Below are positions 11,471-63,218 of a stretch of 64,000 nt of DNA, in pieces. This DNA comes from Vampirovibrionales bacterium (GTDB lineage Bacteria; Cyanobacteriota; Vampirovibrionia; Vampirovibrionales; JAJTHC01): contig JBIKTR010000004.1 in NCBI GenBank assembly GCA_044348005.1, positions 715 to 64,714 of the forward strand, written 5' to 3'. A program made the position numbers and the translations under genes. The notes beneath the pieces were generated by a model that worked only from the letters and a program-made list of their open reading frames with translations, was not told where the DNA came from and searched no databases. Numbering within the stretch: the first letter of the stretch is position 1; the number at the start of each line of letters is the position of its first letter.

Positions 11471-11548
11471 GAATAGTAAAAGAAAGAAACGCCCCTGTCA
11501 ACCCCTCGTTCCCCCTCACCCTAGCCCTCTCCTGATTTTGGCTAGCTC

Positions 11549-11690
11549 CGTTTTGAGCTGGTGCTTGGGTTTCTAGTTCTCTTTTAACGCTGGTGCTTGG
11601 AGACCTTTGGCGGCGCAAAGACCCCCAAGCACCAGCGTTAAACGGGAGCAAGAAAACCCAAACACCAGCTCAAAACGAAACTAGAAACCC
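11549..11690. repeat. two-tier nested palindrome built from four copies of GCTGGTGCTTGG
   Basis: The outer arms 11550-11572 and 11654-11676 are complementary at 22 of 23 positions. The inner arms 11584-11600 and 11625-11641 are complementary at 17 of 17. The 12-mer occurs at 11557 and 11589 (+) and at 11625 and 11658 (reverse complement). Confidence 0.7.
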
Positions 11691-11691
11691 C

Positions 11692-12062
11692 AAAAATCGT
11701 GCAGTTTAGCCACTAGGCAACGGGCTAAAAAATAGGGTATACTGAAAAAGAGTGGCTTTTTTCAAGAAGCCTTCACAACCCAGCACATTCCTTGAAAATC
11801 GAACAAAAATCAGACTTTCGTGGCCAGAAAACGGACTTTCGTGGCCAAAAAACGGACTTTCGTGGCCAGAAATCAGACTTTCGTGGCCAAAAAACGGACT
11901 TTTGTGGCCAGAAAACAGACTTTCGTGGCCAGAAAACCGACTTTCGTGGCCAGAAATCAGACTTTCGTGGCCAGAAAACCGACTTTCGTGGCCAGAAATC
12001 AGACTTTCGTGGCCAGAAAACCGACTTTCCGACACACGAAATTAGGGCGTTTCTTTACATCG
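11692..12062 (+). repeat. leader + 10.5 x 21-bp tandem palindrome-bearing repeat + tail element (copy 1)
   Basis: Ten head-to-tail units of GACTTTCGTGGCCAGAAAACG at 11813-12022, then a truncated eleventh unit from 12023. The leader and tail are shared with 41250-41619. Confidence 0.9.
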
Positions 12063-15221: not shown

Positions 15222-16259
15222 ATGAGTAGCATTAATTCCGTGAGTAATTACTGGAGTAGTTCATCAAATTTTGGGACACCCAAGAAAACAACAACTAAAG
15301 CAACCGCTGGTAATGTAGACCCCCTTACCTTGTATTGGGCGCTCCCTGCGTGGGAATTTCAAAAAGCGGGTTCTGCTTCCCCGTATTGGGGGCGCCCTGC
15401 GTCGGGATTTCAAAAAGCGGGTTCTGCTGCCCCTGCCTTTAAAATTCAAAAAAACAGCTTAGACATTCAACCCACCGACTTTATTGCCAAACCTGCCTTT
15501 AAAATTCAAAAAAACAGCTTAGACATTCAAGCCACCGACTTTATTGCCAAATGGGACGCCAACCAAGACGAAGTGCTAGACTTCAAAGAATTCAAACAAT
15601 CCGACGGATTCACTGGCAATGTAAAAACCAACATCGGCAGTGCTGAACTTGCTCAAGCCTTATGGGCGGTTGTGGCTGGACCTGACGGCACCTTAAGTGC
15701 GGCGGAATACGGACGTGCGTTATTGGGTATGGATCAAAACGCCGATGGCTTCATCAATCAACAAGAATCTGACAAAATTAAAACCCAATGGGCCACAGAA
15801 GCCAACGAAGACCCTGGCAAAGCAAACGTGAGCATTTACAATCGTAATGTGGCCTTGGGCACAAAGGCTGGACTAGATACTAAATTTGGTTTAGGCTTTG
15901 AAGAAAAATACGCCAAAAGCCTTGAAGAGGATGAATCAAGTGATTTAATTAGTACAGATCTTTCAACAACTAACTCAATCACAGATTCTGATGATATCGT
16001 CGCCTTACTTTCTAGTTTGGGTATTGATGTCACCACAACAGGTACGTTAGAAAAAGCGCCTGCTTCGCCACCTGCTGAAACAAGCACTTTACCACCTGAA
16101 ATACTAGCCCTGCTAAAAACATTAGGCCTTGATACGACAAGCCTTACTCCGCCTACAACGTCAACCACTGATGACGAGAACGATTATGGCTTTTCAGCGG
16201 AAGTGCTGGCCACCTTGCGCGAACCTGTAAACCTCGTCGATGGCTTACCTGTCGTCTAA
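15222..16259 (+). CDS. repeat-containing protein with two EF-hand calcium-binding loops
   Basis: DANQDEVLDFKE and DQNADGFINQQE fit the 12-residue EF-hand loop. There is a 60-bp tandem duplication (15432-15491 and 15492-15551, one mismatch) and a 51-bp duplication starting at 15333. The C-terminus is Ser/Thr/Pro/Asp-rich. Confidence 0.6.
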   Translation: MSSINSVSNYWSSSSNFGTPKKTTTKATAGNVDPLTLYWALPAWEFQKAGSASPYWGRPASGFQKAGSAAPAFKIQKNSLDIQPTDFIAKPAFKIQKNSLDIQATDFIAKWDANQDEVLDFKEFKQSDGFTGNVKTNIGSAELAQALWAVVAGPDGTLSAAEYGRALLGMDQNADGFINQQESDKIKTQWATEANEDPGKANVSIYNRNVALGTKAGLDTKFGLGFEEKYAKSLEEDESSDLISTDLSTTNSITDSDDIVALLSSLGIDVTTTGTLEKAPASPPAETSTLPPEILALLKTLGLDTTSLTPPTTSTTDDENDYGFSAEVLATLREPVNLVDGLPVV

Positions 16260-16427: not shown

Positions 16428-18119
16428 TTGAATCCACACACGCCAAACGATGCTGAAAACCTAAACGAAACCAAACTTTTACTGGCTATTTTGCCTCAAG
16501 GCATTCAGTCGGCCATTCATGAAGAGGAACTGTATTCATTGGTTGAAATCGTCTTGGATTTGGGACGCCCCGCCGAAGTACGCTTCTTAGACGGTTCGTT
16601 TCGAGACATTGGCACAAACCCCGTCACCCCTGAAGACATCGCCCATATTCTTGAAAATATCAGCCCCTTTTCAGACGACAACCGTTCAGGCATTGCCCGC
16701 ACGCTGCACCGCATTAGTGCCATTCGCAACCGCCAAAACGATGTTGTCGGCTTAACGTGTCGCGTCGGGCGCGTATTACTAGGCACAATTGCCCCCATTG
16801 CAGATATTGTGGCAAGCGGTAAAAGCATCCTGTTATTGGGGCGCCCTGGAGTGGGCAAAACAACCAAGCTTCGTGAAATTGCCAAAGTCATTGCCAATGA
16901 ACACCGCAAGCGCGTGGTGATTGTGGACACATCTAATGAAATTGCGGGGGATGGAGACATTCCACACCCTGTGGTGGGGCGCGCCCGAAGAATGCAAGTG
17001 AAAACCCCCTTGCAACAGCAAAGCGTGATGATTGAAGCGGTTGAAAACCATATGCCTGAAGTGATTGTGATTGACGAAATAGGCACTGAAGCCGAAGCAC
17101 AAGCAGCGCGCACCATTGCCGAACGAGGCGTGAGTTTAATTGCCACCGCGCATGGAACAAAACTTGAAAACCTGATTAAAAACCCTGTACTCAGCGATTT
17201 GATTGGCGGTATTCAAAGCGTCACCTTGGGCGATGAAGAAGCACGCCGACGGGCGACACAAAAAACCATTTTGGAACGAGAAAACCCCCCTACCTTTGAT
17301 GTGGCCATTGAACTGCGAGACAAAAACACCTTTGCCGTTTACTTAGACGTTGGCAAAACCGTGGACGACATGCTTCGAGGCTTTGCCGTCAACCCCGAAA
17401 TTCGAAAAACCGCCGAAGACGGTAGCGTCAAGATCTTAAGCACCCAAGTCAAACAGTTAATGGATCCAATCAACCCAGAAGGCGGCATGAAAACAGCGTC
17501 TCTTCAAGAAGCCGTGCCGTTTCACAAGCCCATTCAGCAAGAAAACATACCCTGTTTTAACGTCTTTTTATATGCGGTGACCAAAAGTTTTGTGGAACGC
17601 ATTTTAGAGCGTCTAAACCTACAACATGTGATTCGTTTGACGCTTCAAATGCACGAAGCCCACGCCGTGCTTGCCCTGCGAGGTCACGCCCGCCCTGGAG
17701 CCAAGATATTACGACTGGCCACTGATTTTGAGGTGCCTTGTTTTTATGCCAAAACCAACACAATTCCGCAAATCCAGCGCGCCCTGCGTGAAGCCCTTGA
17801 AGCCACCGAACGAGGTCAGCACATTTTGGATCAACTGCGTTTAAGCGTAGGCGAAGAAAATAGCCGTACCGCATGGGCAAACTCAGCGGTGGAAGCCGAT
17901 GCCAGCTCGCCTCAGCATGATGAAATTGAATCGGCGATTCAAGAAGTGGAAGCGGGCATTCAAATTGTGTTGAATACGCAGAAGTCTTACGAACTGGAGC
18001 CTCGGCGGTCCTATATTCGCCGTTTACAGCACGATCATGTGGAAAAGTTCAACTTGATTTCGCTTTCCGTCGGTGCGGAACCCGAACGGCACATCAAGAT
18101 TTTACCGAATAAGACTTAA
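16428..18119 (+). CDS. AAA ATPase with a C-terminal R3H domain (Ycf45 / SpoIIIAA-like)
   Basis: Walker A LLLGRPGVGKTT, Walker B VIVIDEIGT and IATAHG. The C-terminal YIRRLQHDHVEKFNLISLSVGAEPERHIKILP looks R3H-like. TTG start in the track. Confidence 0.75.
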   Translation: MNPHTPNDAENLNETKLLLAILPQGIQSAIHEEELYSLVEIVLDLGRPAEVRFLDGSFRDIGTNPVTPEDIAHILENISPFSDDNRSGIARTLHRISAIRNRQNDVVGLTCRVGRVLLGTIAPIADIVASGKSILLLGRPGVGKTTKLREIAKVIANEHRKRVVIVDTSNEIAGDGDIPHPVVGRARRMQVKTPLQQQSVMIEAVENHMPEVIVIDEIGTEAEAQAARTIAERGVSLIATAHGTKLENLIKNPVLSDLIGGIQSVTLGDEEARRRATQKTILERENPPTFDVAIELRDKNTFAVYLDVGKTVDDMLRGFAVNPEIRKTAEDGSVKILSTQVKQLMDPINPEGGMKTASLQEAVPFHKPIQQENIPCFNVFLYAVTKSFVERILERLNLQHVIRLTLQMHEAHAVLALRGHARPGAKILRLATDFEVPCFYAKTNTIPQIQRALREALEATERGQHILDQLRLSVGEENSRTAWANSAVEADASSPQHDEIESAIQEVEAGIQIVLNTQKSYELEPRRSYIRRLQHDHVEKFNLISLSVGAEPERHIKILPNKT

Positions 18120-18542: not shown

Positions 18543-18584
18543 ATTTTTTCTATAGCTAAGGTCTGCGAAAGTCTATTTTGCCTT

Positions 18585-18702
18585 GTTCCTCCTCCCTTAG
18601 GTCGCACGCCTCGCCTATGGCGGGCTACGCTAGGAGGAGGGACACCAGCTCTGACGGGGCATCCTGAATCCCTCACCCCAACCCTCTCCCTAAGGGAGAG
18701 GG
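18585..18702. repeat. REP-like hairpin cluster between rnpB and pyrB
   Basis: Hairpin GTTCCTCCTCCCTTAG...CTAGGAGGAGGGAC and a perfect CCCTCTCCC-TAA-GGGAGAGGG hairpin (18682-18702). The motif CCTCACCCCAACCCTCTCC (18671-18689) recurs at 11514-11532. Confidence 0.6.
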
Positions 18703-19658
18703 AGTAAAGCCCAGAGCAAGCACGCCATCCGCATGGCCACACCGTTTCGCACCTGCTGATTGATCAACGACTTGGGATGCGTCGCTAAATCCGCGTGCAA
18801 TTCCGCCCCCCAGTTCACCGGCCCCGGATGCATCAATTTCACCCGATCGTAACGAGCCAAATGCTCAGGCGTGAGCTGAATCTTCTGCACGAGGGCTTCC
18901 AACGCCTCTGGCGTTTCAGCGGTAGACAACCGCTCCTTCTGAAGTCGCAACGCCATCACCACATCCACTTCAGCCAACAAGCATTCCACATCAAAGTCGG
19001 GGGCATCGCTCAGGAAAAGGGGGGTTTGCCAGTGATCTAGGGTGTCACGAGAAGGGGCCAAGGCATCGGGGGCGTAGAGCTTAACAGACACGCCTAGTTT
19101 TTTGGCGAGTGTAAGCGTCGCCGCCACCACACGACTGTGCTTAAGATCCCCCACAATGCCAAGCCGTAACTGTTGCATATCATCAAACGAACAGCCCGCT
19201 TGTTGAAAAAGCGTCAAGACGTCTAGCAAGCCTTGCGTGGGGTGATCGCTCATGCCGTCGCCCGCGTTGAGTAGGGCCAAGCGTCCGTGGGTGTGCTTGT
19301 CTAGCTCGATGTGAATACCGTCCTGCGCATGACGCAACACCACCGCATCAACACCCATGGCAATAAGCGTTTCAAGGGTATCTTCAAGCGATTCGCCCTT
19401 AAGCAGGCTAGAACTTTCAACAGGAAAGGGCAAGACGTTCGCCCCCAAGTTCATGGCGGCCAGTTCAAAGCTCAAGCGTGTTCGAGTAGACGCTTCATGA
19501 AAAAGCGTCGTCACCGTTTTACCCTTTAGTGAAGTGTTGGTGTAAGGTTTACCAGTCGCACGTGCTTTTTCTAGGGCATCCACAAAGCCTTGAGCGCTTA
19601 GAATGAGGCGTCGCACGGTGTCGGCGTCTAGGGTGTTGGAACGCAACAATGAACGCAT
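18690..19658 (-). CDS. pyrB: aspartate carbamoyltransferase catalytic subunit
   Basis: STRTRLSFE carbamoyl-phosphate motif and the HPGP box (LMHPGPVNWG). 322 aa. The stop codon lies inside the 18682-18702 hairpin. Confidence 0.9.
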   Translation of the reverse strand: MRSLLRSNTLDADTVRRLILSAQGFVDALEKARATGKPYTNTSLKGKTVTTLFHEASTRTRLSFELAAMNLGANVLPFPVESSSLLKGESLEDTLETLIAMGVDAVVLRHAQDGIHIELDKHTHGRLALLNAGDGMSDHPTQGLLDVLTLFQQAGCSFDDMQQLRLGIVGDLKHSRVVAATLTLAKKLGVSVKLYAPDALAPSRDTLDHWQTPLFLSDAPDFDVECLLAEVDVVMALRLQKERLSTAETPEALEALVQKIQLTPEHLARYDRVKLMHPGPVNWGAELHADLATHPKSLINQQVRNGVAMRMACLLWALLPLP

Positions 19659-40036: not shown

Positions 40037-41008
40037 ATGAAAAAAAGATCCTGTGGTTCCATTAAAGTTTTACTTTTACAGAAGTCAAGAGAGGCTGCTT
40101 TATCAGCAGTTCAGATTTTTAACAATCCTAATATTACGTTTAAATCTGAAACATATATTGTACTTATGATAATCGCATGGACTTATCTACATCATGCTTT
40201 TTTTAAAGAACATAAAATAGATTATAGATATAGAGATACCTCAAAGAGTAACGGTAAGAAAGTTGTCTATAAAAAAAGAGAAGACGACTACCTTTATTGG
40301 GACTTGAGCCATTGTATTAAACATGAACAAAGCCCATTAAGCGAGGCTTGTAAAAATAATTTAAAGTTTTTAATTGGTTTAAGAAATAAAGTTGAACATA
40401 AAATGATTAAAGATTTGGATGATGCTGTTAGTGCTAGACTTCAAGCATGCTGTCTTAACTTTAATAAATATATAAAAGAATTATTTGGGGAAAAATACTC
40501 CATTCACAATCATCTCACTTTTTCTCTCCAGTTCTCTAAACTTAACACTGAACAAAGAAGTTTAATAAAAGAGTATGACCTCCCTGAAACTATTGAGTCC
40601 TATATTGAGAAATTTGATTCTAATTTAAAACCTGATGAATATAATAATGATGAGTTTGCTATTCGGTATCTGTTCGTACCTAAACAAGCAAACCGAATAG
40701 GACAAGCAGACAAAGCAATAGAGTTTTTAAAAAAAGATTCAACTCTTACGGAAGAACTTAACAAACAATATGTTATATCAAAAGAAGTAGAGAAACCTAA
40801 ATTTAAACCTAAGAAAATTGTAAGCATGATGAAGGAATTAGGTTTTAATTTTGCAATGAAAGATTTTACTACTTTATGGCAAAACCACAAAGCTAAAGGC
40901 AATCCACAATATGGCGTATTTGTTTCTGAAAACAACTGGTATTGGTATCAAACATGGGTAGACAAAGTAAAAAAAGAGTGTGAAGAAAATCGAGAGAATC
41001 TAAAATAG
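40037..41008 (+). CDS. AT-rich orphan protein with an Rx4H (HEPN-like) motif
   Basis: LIGLRNKVEH (R116-H121, nt 40382-40399) in a predicted helical N-terminal domain. Hand counts of two stretches give about 27-35% G+C, whereas flanking thrC is clearly above 50%. Confidence 0.5.
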   Translation: MKKRSCGSIKVLLLQKSREAALSAVQIFNNPNITFKSETYIVLMIIAWTYLHHAFFKEHKIDYRYRDTSKSNGKKVVYKKREDDYLYWDLSHCIKHEQSPLSEACKNNLKFLIGLRNKVEHKMIKDLDDAVSARLQACCLNFNKYIKELFGEKYSIHNHLTFSLQFSKLNTEQRSLIKEYDLPETIESYIEKFDSNLKPDEYNNDEFAIRYLFVPKQANRIGQADKAIEFLKKDSTLTEELNKQYVISKEVEKPKFKPKKIVSMMKELGFNFAMKDFTTLWQNHKAKGNPQYGVFVSENNWYWYQTWVDKVKKECEENRENLK

Positions 41009-41249
41009 CTTATATGAAAGGAAACAAGTCTATGACCAACATTCACTAGATGCAGCGCTTTGAAAGACTATATTTACGAGAAGTAAAAGCATAAATTGTT
41101 TTGAGGACTTTCCCCATGGAGTTCACCGATTAGGGGGCTAAAGAATGCTTGCCCCCCCCGACTGCCTTGAAGAAAGAGACCATAGACCCTTTTATCTATC
41201 CAACACTATATTTGGTATGATGCTATTTTTCTGTCGCTTCAACATGTAA

Positions 41250-41619
41250 AAAAATCGTGCACTTTAGCCACTGGGCAAAGCGCTAAAAAATAGGGTATAC
41301 TGAAAAAGAGTGGCTTTTTTCAACAGCCCTTCACAACCCAGCAAATTCCTTGAAAATCGAGTAAAAAAACCGACTTTCGTGGCCAGAAAACGGACTTTCG
41401 TGGCCAGAAAACGGACTTTCGTGGCCAGAAAACGGACTTTCGTGGCCAGAAAACGGACTTTCGTGGCCAGAAAACGGACTTTTGTGGCCAGAAAATAGAC
41501 TTTCGTGGCCAGAAAACGGACTTTCGTGGCCAGAAAACGGACTTTTGTGGCCAGAAAATAGACTTTTGTGGCCAGAAAATAGACTTTTCGACACACGAAA
41601 TTAGGCCATTTTTACATCG
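41250..41619 (+). repeat. leader + 10.5 x 21-bp tandem repeat + tail element (copy 2)
   Basis: Ten units at 41372-41581, then a truncated eleventh unit from 41582. The leader and tail align with 11692-12062. Confidence 0.9.
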
Positions 41620-41715
41620 CTGGCAGGGGGGCAGGCGAGAGGGTTGACGTTTTTATGGCTATAACATTTACTCGCGGATGAATCACTAAGGCCTGTGACG
41701 TTGATTGAAAATGGC

Positions 41716-62401: not shown

Positions 62402-63084
62402 TGCGTCTTTCCTCTTCAGTCCCAAGCGTTACGACTGTTCGCCCGCCAGTGCTTTTAATTGGCGCAGGCGGGCATGCCAAAGTGATCCTAGAAGAGTTTA
62501 AATCCCTATACGACTTTCGCGCGGTGTTGAGCGATGCCCCCTTGAGTCGGCGACAAACCGAGTATTTTAAGGGGCATGGGCTAGATGTGTTGATTGAATC
62601 AGACGCCGTGCTTGACGCCTTTTTAGCCAAGCAAATCACCCATGCCGTGGTGGCGGTGGGTGACAATGACGTGAGGCTCCAAATCGCGGAATCGCTCTTG
62701 CAAAAAGGGTTTCACGTGCCTAGCCTGATTCATCCAGACGCAAAAATTGCGTCCACCGCAGCAATTTTCCCCACAGGCGTGCAGATTTTAGCTGGGGCGC
62801 ATGTGGGGGCTTCGGCAGTGGTGGGCGCACACACGATTTTGAATCACCACGCTATTGTCGAACATGACGCCACCTTAAGCAATGCGGTTCATGTGGCACC
62901 ACAAGCGGTGGTGTTGGGGGGGGCTTCGCTTGCCACAGGCACGTTGTTGGGGTGCCACGCCACGGTGTTACCCAATGTGCAGGTGTTGGCCAAAGCGCAG
63001 ATTGGGGCAGGGGCGGTGGTGACTCAAAACATCCACCAAGAAGGTGTCTATGTCGGCATACCCGCTATACTATCGGCTAGATAA
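62401..63084 (+). CDS. NeuD/PglD-family sugar O-acyltransferase (left-handed beta-helix)
   Basis: N-terminal Rossmann-like LLIGAGGHAKVILEE. C-terminal hexapeptide repeats (GAHVGASAVVGAHTILNHHAIVEHDATLSNAVHVAP...). TGATG coupling to the upstream gene. Confidence 0.7.
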   Translation: MRLSSSVPSVTTVRPPVLLIGAGGHAKVILEEFKSLYDFRAVLSDAPLSRRQTEYFKGHGLDVLIESDAVLDAFLAKQITHAVVAVGDNDVRLQIAESLLQKGFHVPSLIHPDAKIASTAAIFPTGVQILAGAHVGASAVVGAHTILNHHAIVEHDATLSNAVHVAPQAVVLGGASLATGTLLGCHATVLPNVQVLAKAQIGAGAVVTQNIHQEGVYVGIPAILSAR

Positions 63085-63218
63085 AACGGTCTATGGTCTC
63101 TTCGTTGTCGCTACGATTTTTTTGCTTGGTTATGTACGTTTATGTACACGCCCGCACAAAAAAATCTAGGCTCCTAGAATAGCCTCATCGCCTGTTTCAT
63201 CTAGCGGATACTATGGGC
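63061..63218 (+). repeat. dispersed palindromic element, member C
   Basis: 5' box at 63099-63117, a central stem GATTTTTTTG/CAAAAAAATC (63115-63124 with 63157-63166) and the 3' box at 63166-63185. The outer arms 63061-63089 and 63191-63218 are largely complementary and overlap both flanking CDS ends. Confidence 0.75.

Follow-up and report, generated by a model that had tools for sequence, protein, structure and literature searches.

Dispersed promoter-led 21-nucleotide repeat arrays in Vampirovibrionales: a candidate family of repeated-hairpin small RNA genes

Several described systems resemble, in part, the locus analysed here. CsrB/CsrC and RsmX/Y/Z are stand-alone small RNA genes, present as several paralogues per genome and headed by a palindromic activator site upstream of the promoter, whose body of repeated short hairpins or loops, each binding one protein, closes with a terminator. 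Type III antitoxins (ToxI, CptI, TenpI) combine a promoter, direct RNA repeats, a partial repeat and a terminator, and the known ones have units of 34-45 nt. A further group are the ANTAR-sequestering small RNAs EutX and Rli55 and the ANTAR target hairpins. The latter stand in tandem, each with a stem of 3 bp or more and a hexaloop that has A as its first and G as its fourth base, and are separated by a linker of 5-12 nt (PMC3369931). Among DNA repeats, pneumococcal BOX, BIME-2 and ERIC elements are multicopy, intergenic and non-coding, with a modular A-(B)n-C design, a variable number of internal modules and presence/absence differences between strains, while plasmid iterons and parC/parS-type centromere arrays consist of ~20-bp direct repeats, in some cases numbering ten, that share one face of the helix. 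Vampirovibrionia, the sister group of cyanobacteria that does not photosynthesise, are almost entirely uncultured; the literature we searched on Vampirovibrio and Melainabacteria held nothing relevant on tandem repeats, small RNAs, CsrA or the unit sequence, and we found no regulatory RNA described there for Vampirovibrionia.

The stretch analysed, 64,000 nt of DNA from a Vampirovibrionales bacterium (hereafter the window), contains two copies of a leader-array-tail element (Table 1). As stated in the original prediction, the copies are homologous, lie in the same orientation, 29,556 bp apart, and each hold ten units and a truncated eleventh. Their homology sets in sharply at 11694 and 41250 and ends at about 12062 and 41620, with 88% identity in the leader and 91% in the array against 34-42% in the flanking 60 nt. 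Tandem Repeats Finder places period-21 arrays at 11807-12029 and 41366-41587, with 10.6 copies each. With up to 3 mismatches permitted, a search of the window for the core GACTTTCGTGGCCAGAAA gives 20 matches, always on the plus strand and at a spacing of exactly 21 bp (ten matches at 11813-12019, ten at 41372-41578), against 0.15 matches expected from shuffled sequence.

Table 1. Coordinates of the element copies and their parts in the window.
Feature	Position	Strand	Detail
Copy 2 of the element	41250 to about 41620	+	Block of ~370 bp; ten 21-bp units plus a truncated eleventh
A-tract, then inverted repeat GTG-N9-CAC	41250..41271	+	GTG 41257-41259, CAC 41269-41271
Promoter-like core, copy 2	41272..41301	+	TGGGCA (41272-41277), 18-nt spacer with AAAA, TATACT (41296-41301)
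Predicted 5' part of transcript	41302..41371	+	GAAAAAGAGTGGCT, type-A-specific hairpin, C/U-rich stretch, AAAATCGAGTAAAAAAACC; putative start site
Array, copy 2	41372..41581	+	Ten 21-nt units, each GACTTTYGTGGCCAGAAA plus 3 free nt
Truncated eleventh unit and tail	41582..41619	+	Hairpin UUUCG-ACACA-CGAAA (41586-41600), GGCCA (41604-41608), T-run (41609-41613)
Copy 1 of the element	11694..12062	+	Promoter-like TAGGCA-18-TATACT at 11714-11743
Copy 1 array	11813-12022	+	Ten units; tail 12023-12062
Second, different promoter-like module	41176..41215	+	GAGACCATAGACC, TAGACC-18-TATATT; 75 nt upstream of copy 2, same orientation

Alignment of the copies shows that the 1-nt indel reported directly before the array is real, and it falls within the predicted 5' part of the transcript. 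The tail, described as conserved, does keep 86% identity but carries a 2-nt indel as well. Unit variants thought to be private to each locus are shared: TTTTGTGG, assigned to copy 2, also occurs in copy 1 at 11897, and the triplets TCA, ACC and ATA are all found again in other family members. Homogenisation within arrays is nonetheless evident from a 42-bp super-repeat in copy 1 and a 63-bp super-repeat in copy 2, and a single unit converted in a 99.9%-identical strain was counted as another case of it. The genes around the window elements comprise priA, an M23 peptidase, GDH, a PLP enzyme, DUF3644, L33, an SPFH protein and BioB; downstream of the elements lie the convergent M23 peptidase gene and rpmG, which has its own promoter. 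The neighbours named for copy 2 are in place, namely rpmG and tRNA-Trp downstream and, upstream, an AT-rich gene with a HEPN motif (40037-41008; RNKVEH; 30% GC against 47% for the window). A link to this adjoining gene was dropped, as it is absent from two samples (L034, L037) in which the element is present.

The leader resembles a promoter, its core in copy 2 scoring 9/12 in a promoter scan. In 30 alignable leaders, the conserved parts are the inverted repeat (kept as [TA][CA]GTG-N9-CACT, with varying bases between the arms), the -35-like hexamer, AAAA in the fixed 17/18-nt spacer and an extended -10, and the stretches between them are without conservation; these blocks fall where a promoter would require them. 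The family pattern consists of GTG-N9-CAC, TAGGCA as the -35 and TGTCATACT or TATACT as the -10, the type B relatives having TGTCATACT, an extended -10. The promoter of rpmG itself in the source organism reads TTGACG-17-GATACT. The GTG-N9-CAC motif, which lies upstream of the -35-like hexamer and touches it, is a candidate activator site, and within 286 kb (window and family loci) it is confined to these elements. Further downstream, GAAAAAGAGTRGCT is near-invariant across the 30 leaders, and the start segment is conserved in the family as GAGTRGCT. The type-A-specific leader hairpin (GAG.GGCUU...AAGCCUUC) has 8 bp according to RNAalifold; its changes are one-sided only (U-A/U-G), with no compensatory pairs among the 11 copies folded.

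The linker between leader and array is non-homologous between loci, measures from ~35 to ~250 nt and in some cases includes inserted small palindromes, and wherever the downstream sequence is known, leader and array come in this order and share their orientation. Since the linker varies in both sequence and length, co-transcription alone, and not DNA spacing, appears to be preserved. A sigma-54 promoter, a stem closing leader on tail, terminal inverted repeats and a Yfr1-like CUCACAC motif were also considered and dropped, the copies conserving none of them. Apart from the one upstream of copy 2, modules of the GAGACCATAGACC type occur immediately before the L024 array, beside the L014 element and alone at 63088-63100 on the minus strand.

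Counting lake metagenomes together with three Vampirovibrionales-type MAGs, the family has at least 30 loci; 28 are in the three MAGs, each of which holds at least 10-15, and further metagenome loci were found by the leader alone. Every member has the same order: promoter, GAGTRGCT start, replaceable linker, array, and variant terminal unit with a T-run. All loci are intergenic, numerous and dispersed in housekeeping DNA, and 19 of 27 have a convergent gene downstream, which argues that the element is not a 5' UTR. Blastn found no similarity in plasmid and phage records, and neither the array pattern nor that of the related GTGTGTC-type arrays matched viral contigs. Rfam 15 gave no match at the gathering threshold over the whole window and none at E<=10 for 41200-41700, and contigs carrying the spurious 110-aa array ORF, sought as transcript-like contigs, are not on record. 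As far as these searches reach, the family is restricted to freshwater Vampirovibrionales, occurs in many copies per genome and is previously undescribed. Short-read assemblies break at the arrays, three contigs ending at an array edge, so that such arrays are under-represented and under-counted in MAGs.

Conservation within the units follows a single pattern. Over 169 family units, positions 1-6, 9-11 and 16-18 are invariant at 97% or more, leaving 7, 15 and 19-21 free; every array and genome has 15-16 invariant positions, and the same five positions are variable everywhere. This uniformity indicates a constraint acting on the single unit. The free triplet in copy 2 is ACG in seven units and ATA in three. 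Units are spaced by exactly 21 bp in GTGGCCA-type arrays and by 22 bp in terminal units and in the related GTGTGTC arrays. At L030 and L032 the shared leader would drive arrays with this other core and 22-nt units, and two-helical-turn phasing therefore appears not to be conserved.

The array had been proposed to be fixed at ten units, or 210 bp, with unit numbers clustering at that value, which our comparisons contradict. In two samples, the rpmG-upstream locus matches the window at 97.2-97.8% identity in the flanks and ~97% in leader and tail, yet its array has 7 units; orthologous loci in other MAGs differ likewise (9 vs 5, 7 vs 5 and 7 vs 6 units), and paralogous arrays hold 2-10. Between strains ~97% identical in the flanks, leader and tail diverge no more than the flanks do and the array is remodelled. 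Relatives that are 90-95% identical lack the element at the rpmG-upstream locus, where unrelated sequence and no empty site is found; this site is a variable island that also receives Fic genes and a defence-candidate gene. Orthologous intergenic sites have kept their elements where the flanks are 78-95% identical. Orthologous loci may differ in leader type and yet share their tail (L007/L012, L008/L023), which implies exchange between loci. Neutral minisatellite behaviour had been expected to appear as arbitrary unit numbers together with decayed ends: the numbers are indeed arbitrary, but leaders and tails are the best-conserved parts of the element and look like a promoter and a transcript end. 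An arbitrary unit number between intact leader and tail speaks against a neutral minisatellite and equally against a DNA structure gauged by its length.

The predicted plus-strand RNA folds with -101 kcal/mol (z = -4.8) and the minus strand folds equally well (-102.7 kcal/mol, z = -5.6), and counts of G-U vs A-C give no net strand signal. Positions 7 and 15 show no covariation within the unit or across the junction in GTGGCCA-type arrays. The A-C mismatch at this variable stem pair (15 and 7) occurs at ~25% of junctions and is no rarer in GGA loops (GGA vs non-GGA junctions, Fisher p = 0.28). In L030 and L032, two short metagenome contigs that form the basis of the junction covariation, a reading by hand has the arms switching together (CAGAA/UUCUG vs CGAAA/UUUCG) or still pairing through G-U.

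At the other end of the array, GGCCA of the tail can pair with UGGCC of the last unit, and the resulting fold in copy 2 (GUGGCC...GGCCAU, then UUUUAC) has -9.0 kcal/mol, with a like design in L014 (-12.2) and L022 (-13.5). The GACACAC of the copy 2 tail is the reverse complement of the GTGTGTC core of the relatives, and the terminal hairpin shows a compensatory change between L018 (CGUGGGUCG/CGACCCACG) and L021 (GUGUGUC/GACACAC). The copy 1 tail, AGGGCGUUUCUUU, makes a weak terminator only. Independent, non-homologous hairpin-plus-U terminators follow the array in L025, L023/L008, L026, L012, L014 and L022; many terminator-like hairpins could be those of the convergent gene instead, and a terminator scan of both strands gave similar numbers on each, which does not distinguish them.

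When compared with the systems described above, the family is not a member of the CsrB/Rsm RNAs, type III antitoxins, CRISPR arrays or iterons. Its sequence motifs would fit a gene laid out like those of CsrB and the Rsm RNAs, stand-alone and paralogous, with a palindromic activator site upstream, a predicted repeated-hairpin body and a terminator. It differs in that the defining GGA motif is not conserved, being present at 78 of the 169 unit junctions (46%), in 7/10 units of copy 2, 3/10 of copy 1 and 1/7 of the 7-unit allele at the rpmG-upstream locus (L034/L037), and in that its body is made of exact 21-mers in tandem, whose number rises and falls. No covariance-model similarity to CsrB, CsrC or RsmX/Y/Z was found with Rfam 15, and tblastn with approximate CsrA queries gave no match in 286 kb, a small part of the genomes. 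Flagellar genes, which often accompany CsrA, are encoded in the window. Similar queries for Hfq, ToxN and ANTAR-like sequences, again approximate and in a small sample of up to 342 kb, returned noise only. Unlike CRISPR arrays, in which unique spacers separate the repeats, the units abut and vary in 3 nt each, and no cas-like Pfam families occur among the window genes scanned.

The likeness to ANTAR targets concerns the fold. Units in the window allow a GAAA/UUUC stem, an A-N-N-G-A-C loop and the 7-nt linker GUGGCCA, a fit that would explain why free variation is limited to loop positions 2-3. The loop G4 (unit position 1) is present in 165/169 units and the loop A1 (unit position 19) in 111/169 (66%), with U in 56; the pattern fits 10/10 units of copy 2, 7/7 of L034 and 7/10 of copy 1. 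The loops of L030 and L032, at 7 nt, fall outside the motif, and known ANTAR targets are hairpin pairs, arrays of ten not being among them. The motif carries little information and the fit could be due to chance. No ANTAR domain was detected among the window proteins scanned.

Other explanations of the element can be weighed against these data. It is unlikely, in our view, to be a modular intergenic repeat comparable to pneumococcal BOX, either selfish or neutral, which recombination would spread and reshuffle and which would lack a host function, its promoter- and terminator-like activity being a by-product. Such a repeat would account for the modular leader-(unit)n-tail design with its variable unit number, for the 10-15 or more loci per MAG, for presence and absence at the rpmG locus among relatives 90-95% identical, for the inter-locus exchange implied by unlike leaders with a common tail, and for the location in a variable island, where Fic genes and a defence-candidate gene are taken up as well. 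However, neither terminal inverted repeats nor a target-site duplication are seen at the boundaries (41250, 41620), the genomes compared at the rpmG locus offer no clean empty site, and the viral contigs, phages and plasmids searched contain no copies. Conservation is focused on promoter positions, where recent transposition bursts would have spread it uniformly, and orthologous sites with flanks of 78-88% identity still carry elements. The family also differs from BOX-type repeats in its well-formed, position-specifically conserved promoter as first module, its much lower copy number and its persistence at orthologous sites across species, and it belongs to another phylum and has no sequence relationship with them. 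The array could alternatively act as DNA, offering a DNA-binding protein a series of sites in phase (as iteron, decoy or landing pad for a nucleoid protein), perhaps the very factor that would recognise the promoter inverted repeat. This is the view of the original prediction less the fixed length, and we consider it quite improbable. The 21-bp period corresponds to two helical turns with A-tracts in phase, the unit is near-palindromic (TTTC-G-TGGCCA-GAAA), CGTGG(G/C) is present in both the promoter inverted repeat and the units, and GTGGCCA-type arrays show no strand-specific RNA signal. Against this, relatives with the same leader have 22-nt units and the non-palindromic core GTGTGTC, the phase is broken by the 22-nt terminal units, the distance from promoter to array differs by more than 100 bp, and junction arms still pair through G-U in L032 and in terminal units. 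Whereas iterons and centromere arrays would be expected beside a rep or par gene, none was found among the genes around the window elements, nor are nucleoid genes adjacent; the family is chromosomal, occupies many loci in housekeeping DNA, seems not to conserve its phase in relatives and has its conserved promoter invariably aimed into the array.

The order of promoter, tandem repeats with a partial last unit, and terminator is also that of a type III locus, and a free unit number is expected if single units are active, as in a repeat RNA cut into unit-length pieces (ToxI-like or otherwise processed) that neutralises a nuclease encoded elsewhere. This is very unlikely for the present family, in which no toxin gene lies downstream but housekeeping genes do, convergent at 19/27 loci; no ToxN-like match was obtained by tblastn with an approximate query in 286 kb, the units are 21 nt long rather than of antitoxin size, and an antitoxin would not normally be present in dozens of copies in one genome. 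Lastly, 21 bp equal seven codons, and a heptad-repeat protein has to be considered: the unit is open in all six frames, ORFs of 82-119 aa span the arrays, and in the frame GAC-TTT-CGT-GGC-CAG-AAA-ACG the variable positions are mostly synonymous or conservative. We give this next to no credence. The minus-strand ORFs through the arrays do run in different frames in the two copies (SGHES.. vs FLATKVR..), as originally noted, with a C-terminus encoded by the leader common to both; the plus-strand frames have no conserved start, and in copy 2 a stop 21 nt upstream interrupts the GAC-TTT-... frame. Another frame acquires stops wherever a unit has ATA, and no Pfam family was found for gene-caller products across the array. 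With terminal units of 22 nt and a linker and unit number that differ at every locus, the earlier view of the arrays as non-coding holds.

The comparisons show how the element is built and in how many copies it occurs, at which positions it is conserved, that its arrays are hypervariable and that orthologous loci keep it. We propose, with about even confidence, that the block is one gene of a set of dispersed stand-alone non-coding transcription units, encoding a repeated-hairpin small RNA that would serve as a multivalent platform for protein binding. That the element is transcribed, how its RNA folds, that a protein binds it and what kind of partner this would be are here deduced from sequence. 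In this mechanism, a promoter with a weak -35 and a good -10 would fire rightward, probably activated by a factor on GTG-N9-CAC. The transcript would begin in the conserved GAGURGCU segment, cross the dispensable linker, continue through the array and end at the variant terminal unit and its U-run. Each unit junction may form a short A-U-rich hairpin (RAAA/UUUY) with a purine-rich loop of 6-7 nt, here A-N-N-G-A-C, leaving the 7-nt core GUGGCCA between hairpins, and adjacent UGGCCA palindromes may pair too. With a hairpin at each junction, the RNA would display 2-10 near-identical binding modules and could act as a sponge or scaffold for one RNA-binding protein, slippage or unequal exchange adding and removing units so that binding capacity would differ between strains. 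No candidate binding protein was found in 342 kb (window and family loci), a sample too small to be informative. It is possible, though we hold it only tentatively, that at least ten paralogous small RNAs form a regulon under one dedicated activator, in which the arrays bind an RNA-binding regulator, possibly of the ANTAR type, and repeat number tunes the set-point of a global post-transcriptional circuit.

If this regulon reading is true, the family would represent a contingency-locus mechanism that works via a sponge RNA, with a heritably tuned sequestering capacity. To our knowledge, repeat-number variation has so far been known mainly from promoters and coding regions; under the sponge reading it would set the capacity of a regulatory RNA as well. 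Through its shared promoter motif the family would point to an activator, and through its repeated RNA module to a protein that binds it. With natural alleles that differ in module number, it may offer a sequence-defined entry point into regulation in Vampirovibrionia.

Two tandem arrays of period 21 lie in the window, each of 10.6 copies. With up to 3 mismatches allowed, the 18-nt core GACTTTCGTGGCCAGAAA has 20 matches, 10 per array, all on the plus strand and spaced exactly 21 bp within each array, against 0.15 matches expected in shuffled sequence. Homology between the two copies has sharp edges (leader 88%, array 91% and tail 86% identical; adjoining 60 nt 34–42%), confirming the two homologous ten-unit arrays of the original prediction. 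What it had described around copy 2 was also recovered: the alignment places a 1-nt indel ahead of the array, the minus-strand ORFs cross the arrays in different frames (SGHES.. vs FLATKVR..), the gene upstream (the DUF3644 gene at 40037-41008) is rich in AT (30% GC vs 47% for the window) and carries an RNKVEH motif, and rpmG and tRNA-Trp lie downstream. The minus-strand ORFs of both arrays end in a common leader-encoded C-terminus. No reading frame is common to the copies, which bears out the proposal that the arrays are non-coding, and their presumed internal homogenisation is likewise upheld. By contrast, copy 1 also has one TTTTGTGG (at 11897), a variant thought specific to copy 2, and the supposedly private unit triplets are found again in other family members.

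Among 169 units, invariance is at least 97% at positions 1–6 (GACTTT), 9–11 (TGG) and 16–18 (AAA) and 89–93% at positions 8 and 12–14, with positions 7 (C/T), 15 (G/A) and 19–21 variable in every array. The variable positions are identical across all paralogues and genomes, a pattern that speaks for selection acting on the unit, not mere recent common descent. Array length, predicted to be fixed at ten units, is unconstrained. Orthologues of the rpmG-upstream locus were fetched via the exact L33 protein (three-digit L numbers denote loci or contigs fetched for comparison). The ten units of the window recur in L038, which is 99.7% identical to it; L041, colinear with the window and 99.9% identical, has one unit converted and a contig that begins inside the array. 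L034 and L037, from two different samples, have flanks 97.2–97.8% and leader and tail ~97% identical to the window, yet carry seven units of another triplet series (ACG, ACC, ACA ×4, ATA), and five relatives with 90–95% identical flanks lack the element at this site. Unit counts at orthologous loci of different MAGs are 9 vs 5, 7 vs 5 and, twice, 7 vs 6, and paralogous arrays range from 2 to 10 units; internal 42-bp and 63-bp super-repeats show that arrays have grown by multi-unit duplication. Three independent short-read contigs with the M23 peptidase (L042, L043, L044) all end at the copy 1 array edge, 108 nt beyond the peptidase stop codon, so MAG unit counts may be collapsed; the arrays break assemblies and are therefore likely under-counted in MAGs. 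The 7-vs-10 contrast is unaffected, because contigs from independent samples span both alleles.

The region upstream of rpmG is a variable island. Strains differ by insertion/deletion of its DUF3644 gene: in L034 and L037, a PLP-enzyme gene is followed directly by the array element. Fic genes occur there in other relatives. Five loci without the array element (L033, L035, L036, L039, L040) have other mini-repeats ~150–550 nt upstream of rpmG (TTTCGCAGG ~3×, GTGTAATTC 3×) along with a fragment that resembles a tRNA T-arm, GGTTCGAATCCCC, and is suggestive of an old integration site.

Location of the elements and neighbouring features (window positions unless a fetched locus is named)
Feature	Position	Strand	Remarks
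Copy 1, extent of homology	11694 to ~12062		
Copy 1, tandem array	11807-12029	+	
Copy 2, extent of homology	41250 to ~41620		
Copy 2, tandem array	41366-41587	+	
Imperfect palindrome, ~150 bp	11542-11690		adjoins copy 1 on its upstream side; arms of 31-43 nt with 81-90% complementarity
Two adjacent tandem duplications	15332-15551		51 bp ×2 and 60 bp ×2, 90-98% matches; near start of the 345-aa ORF
345-aa ORF	15222-16259		no confident Pfam family
AAA-type ATPase ORF	16428-18119	+	C-terminal R3H single-stranded nucleic-acid-binding domain, the only such domain seen in the window; just upstream of RNase P RNA gene
Small G/C-rich palindromes	18558-18711		just after RNase P RNA gene
DUF3644 gene	40037-41008	+	matches PADLOC phage-defence candidate PDC-S19, E = 1.8e-124
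Second promoter-like module	41176-41215	+	75 nt upstream of copy 2
Second promoter-like module	63030-63175	-	alone, at 63.1 kb
Second promoter-like module	L024 5990-6135		directly ahead of array
Second promoter-like module	L014 4085-4215	-	inverted, adjoining element
8 nt of terminal unit	41589-41596		CGACACAC
8 nt of terminal unit	L014 4414-4421		GTGTGTCG

A two-unit pattern run against one genome per species recovered 28 loci in three MAGs, two labelled Vampirovibrionales and one Gammaproteobacteria. The label of the latter (JBEISK01, with L003, L009 and L026 of the same element family) is probably wrong; both flanks of L026 are 94–95% identical to L027 of a Vampirovibrionales MAG. Order and orientation of the parts are constant at every locus: leader, linker, array, terminal unit(s) or tail, then a T-run or hairpin. 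Arrays end either in variant terminal units (GACTTTYGTGGGTCGAAAAGTC, 22 nt), of which there are one or two, or in the CGACACACGAAATTAGG tail of the window. All loci are intergenic, with a convergent downstream gene in 19 of 27, and the window is ordinary chromosome in gene content (flagellar rod and ring genes, alr, priA, M23 peptidase, GDH, RNase P RNA, pyrB-like, truB, L28, mraW, xseA, L33, bioB, hemN, mnmG, photolyase). Searches of Rfam, viral contigs, plasmids and phages, and the literature returned no match to the family, which, judged by its sequence, consists of undescribed, lineage-restricted promoter-array-terminator units.

The promoter assignment comes from an alignment of 30 leaders, whose conserved columns are an A-rich stretch, the inverted repeat [TA][CA]GTG-N9-CACT with variable inner bases, TAGGCRA, AAAA within a fixed-length spacer of 17 or 18 nt, (T)GTCATACT or TATACT, and GAAAAAGAGTRGCT. 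These read as a putative -35-like hexamer, extended -10 and conserved initial transcribed segment, the palindromic site adjoining the weak -35 at the place expected for an activator. A simple promoter scan chooses these hexamers as well, in copy 1 and in copy 2. The promoter of rpmG itself, located 120 bp beyond copy 2, is TTGACG-17-GATACT, so NATACT counts as an ordinary -10 for this organism. In 286 kb of window and fetched loci, the leader motif is confined to sites ahead of arrays. A leader-only metagenome scan gave three true matches: the L029 contig stops before any array could begin, and L030 and L032 have arrays of another unit core (TTYYGTGTGTCRGAAA plus a G-rich segment, ~22 nt), which implies that the promoter-to-array link is older than the particular unit sequence. 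This link is kept despite replacement of the linkers, which show no homology between loci and range from ~35 to ~250 nt, some with small inserted palindromes. Leaders of type A (both window copies, L001, L008, L010, L012, L014, L017, L018, L021, L028) resemble the type B leader plus a ~32-nt extra segment.

A conserved second promoter-like module of ~60 bp (ACATAACCAAGCAA..AAAAATCGTAGC..GAGACCATAGACCGTTTTATCTA..ACTAT) occurs at four places. In L010, L017, L018, L021 and L001, the sequence preceding the element shares the right half of the palindrome that precedes copy 1; the palindrome is absent upstream of copy 2. The small G/C-rich palindromes, e.g. CCCTCTCCCTAAGGGAGAGGG and CCTCCTCCCTTAGG...CTAGGAGGAGGG, match L022 and L016; similar ones are inserted in the leader-to-array linkers of L006, L013, L022, L029 and L030, and they are probably a separate miniature repeat family.

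Several observations favour an RNA product: the promoter is always aimed into the array, the linker is dispensable, and non-homologous hairpin-plus-U terminators follow the array at L025, L023/L008, L026 and L012, with a GUGGCC...GGCCAU-UUUU end design in copy 2, L014 and L022 (-9 to -13.5 kcal/mol). In GTGTGTC arrays, read by hand, the junction-flanking arms switch jointly (CAGAA/UUCUG vs CGAAA/UUUCG) or stay paired via G-U, and mismatches would arise in the alternative hairpin around the core; in the terminal hairpin, L018 (CGUGGGUCG/CGACCCACG) and L021 (GUGUGUC/GACACAC) differ by a compensatory change. Both are counted in favour of RNA. In the terminal unit, the 8 nt between TTTT and GAAA are inverted among members, a hairpin-loop flip (L005 has the L014 form), and L018 and L021 have both orientations in successive units, giving an 11-bp stem. 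In the predicted fold of the copy 2 transcript (-101 kcal/mol, z = -4.8), neighbouring units pair, UGGCCA with UGGCCA and GAAA with UUUC, around the loop ACGGAC. Against RNA, the minus strand folds as well as the plus strand, the sole variable stem pair of GTGGCCA-type arrays (positions 15 and 7) shows no covariation, with A-C mismatches in about a quarter of cases, and the leader hairpin has no compensatory pairs.

The main rivals of the small-RNA reading are a BOX-like selfish repeat and an array of binding sites acting as DNA. The pneumococcal BOX element (A-Bn-C) is the closest non-RNA analogue in architecture, and a selfish repeat is consistent with the leader types exchanged between orthologous loci (L007/L012, L008/L023) and with the variable presence of the element at rpmG; we nevertheless think it unlikely, as conservation is promoter-shaped, terminal repeats are lacking, and elements are kept at orthologous sites over 78–88% flank identity. 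Binding to DNA would suit the 21-bp period, the nearly palindromic unit and the CGTGG motif common to units and promoter repeat, but units are 22 nt in relatives and at array ends, which also leaves the originally predicted DNA ruler unsupported, promoter-to-array spacing is free, and no rep, par or nucleoid gene lies nearby; we think a DNA array slightly less likely still.

Among known kinds, CRISPR (no spacers), iterons (no replicon context) and a heptad-repeat protein (no common reading frame) were rejected, as was a type III antitoxin, which has the same order of promoter, repeats and terminator but requires an adjacent toxin gene, absent here. CsrB/RsmZ-type sponge RNAs have the design predicted here, a stand-alone gene with many paralogues, a palindromic activator site in the promoter, and a body of repeated mini-hairpins plus terminator; membership was rejected because they are defined by a GGA motif that only 46% of units contain (1 of 7 in the L034 allele at the rpmG-upstream locus). 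ANTAR targets are hairpins of at least 3 bp with hexaloops bearing A1 and G4 and a linker of 5–12 nt (PMC3369931). Window-type units give a GAAA/UUUC stem, an A-N-N-G-A-C loop and a GUGGCCA linker, but A1 is in only 66% of units and relatives have 7-nt loops; with so low-information a motif, the resemblance is a lead only.

Based on these comparisons, we consider it roughly an even call that the family comprises small RNA genes, each with a hypervariable repeat body that would serve as a multivalent protein-binding platform. A fit to ANTAR-type targets would explain why loop positions 2–3 vary freely.
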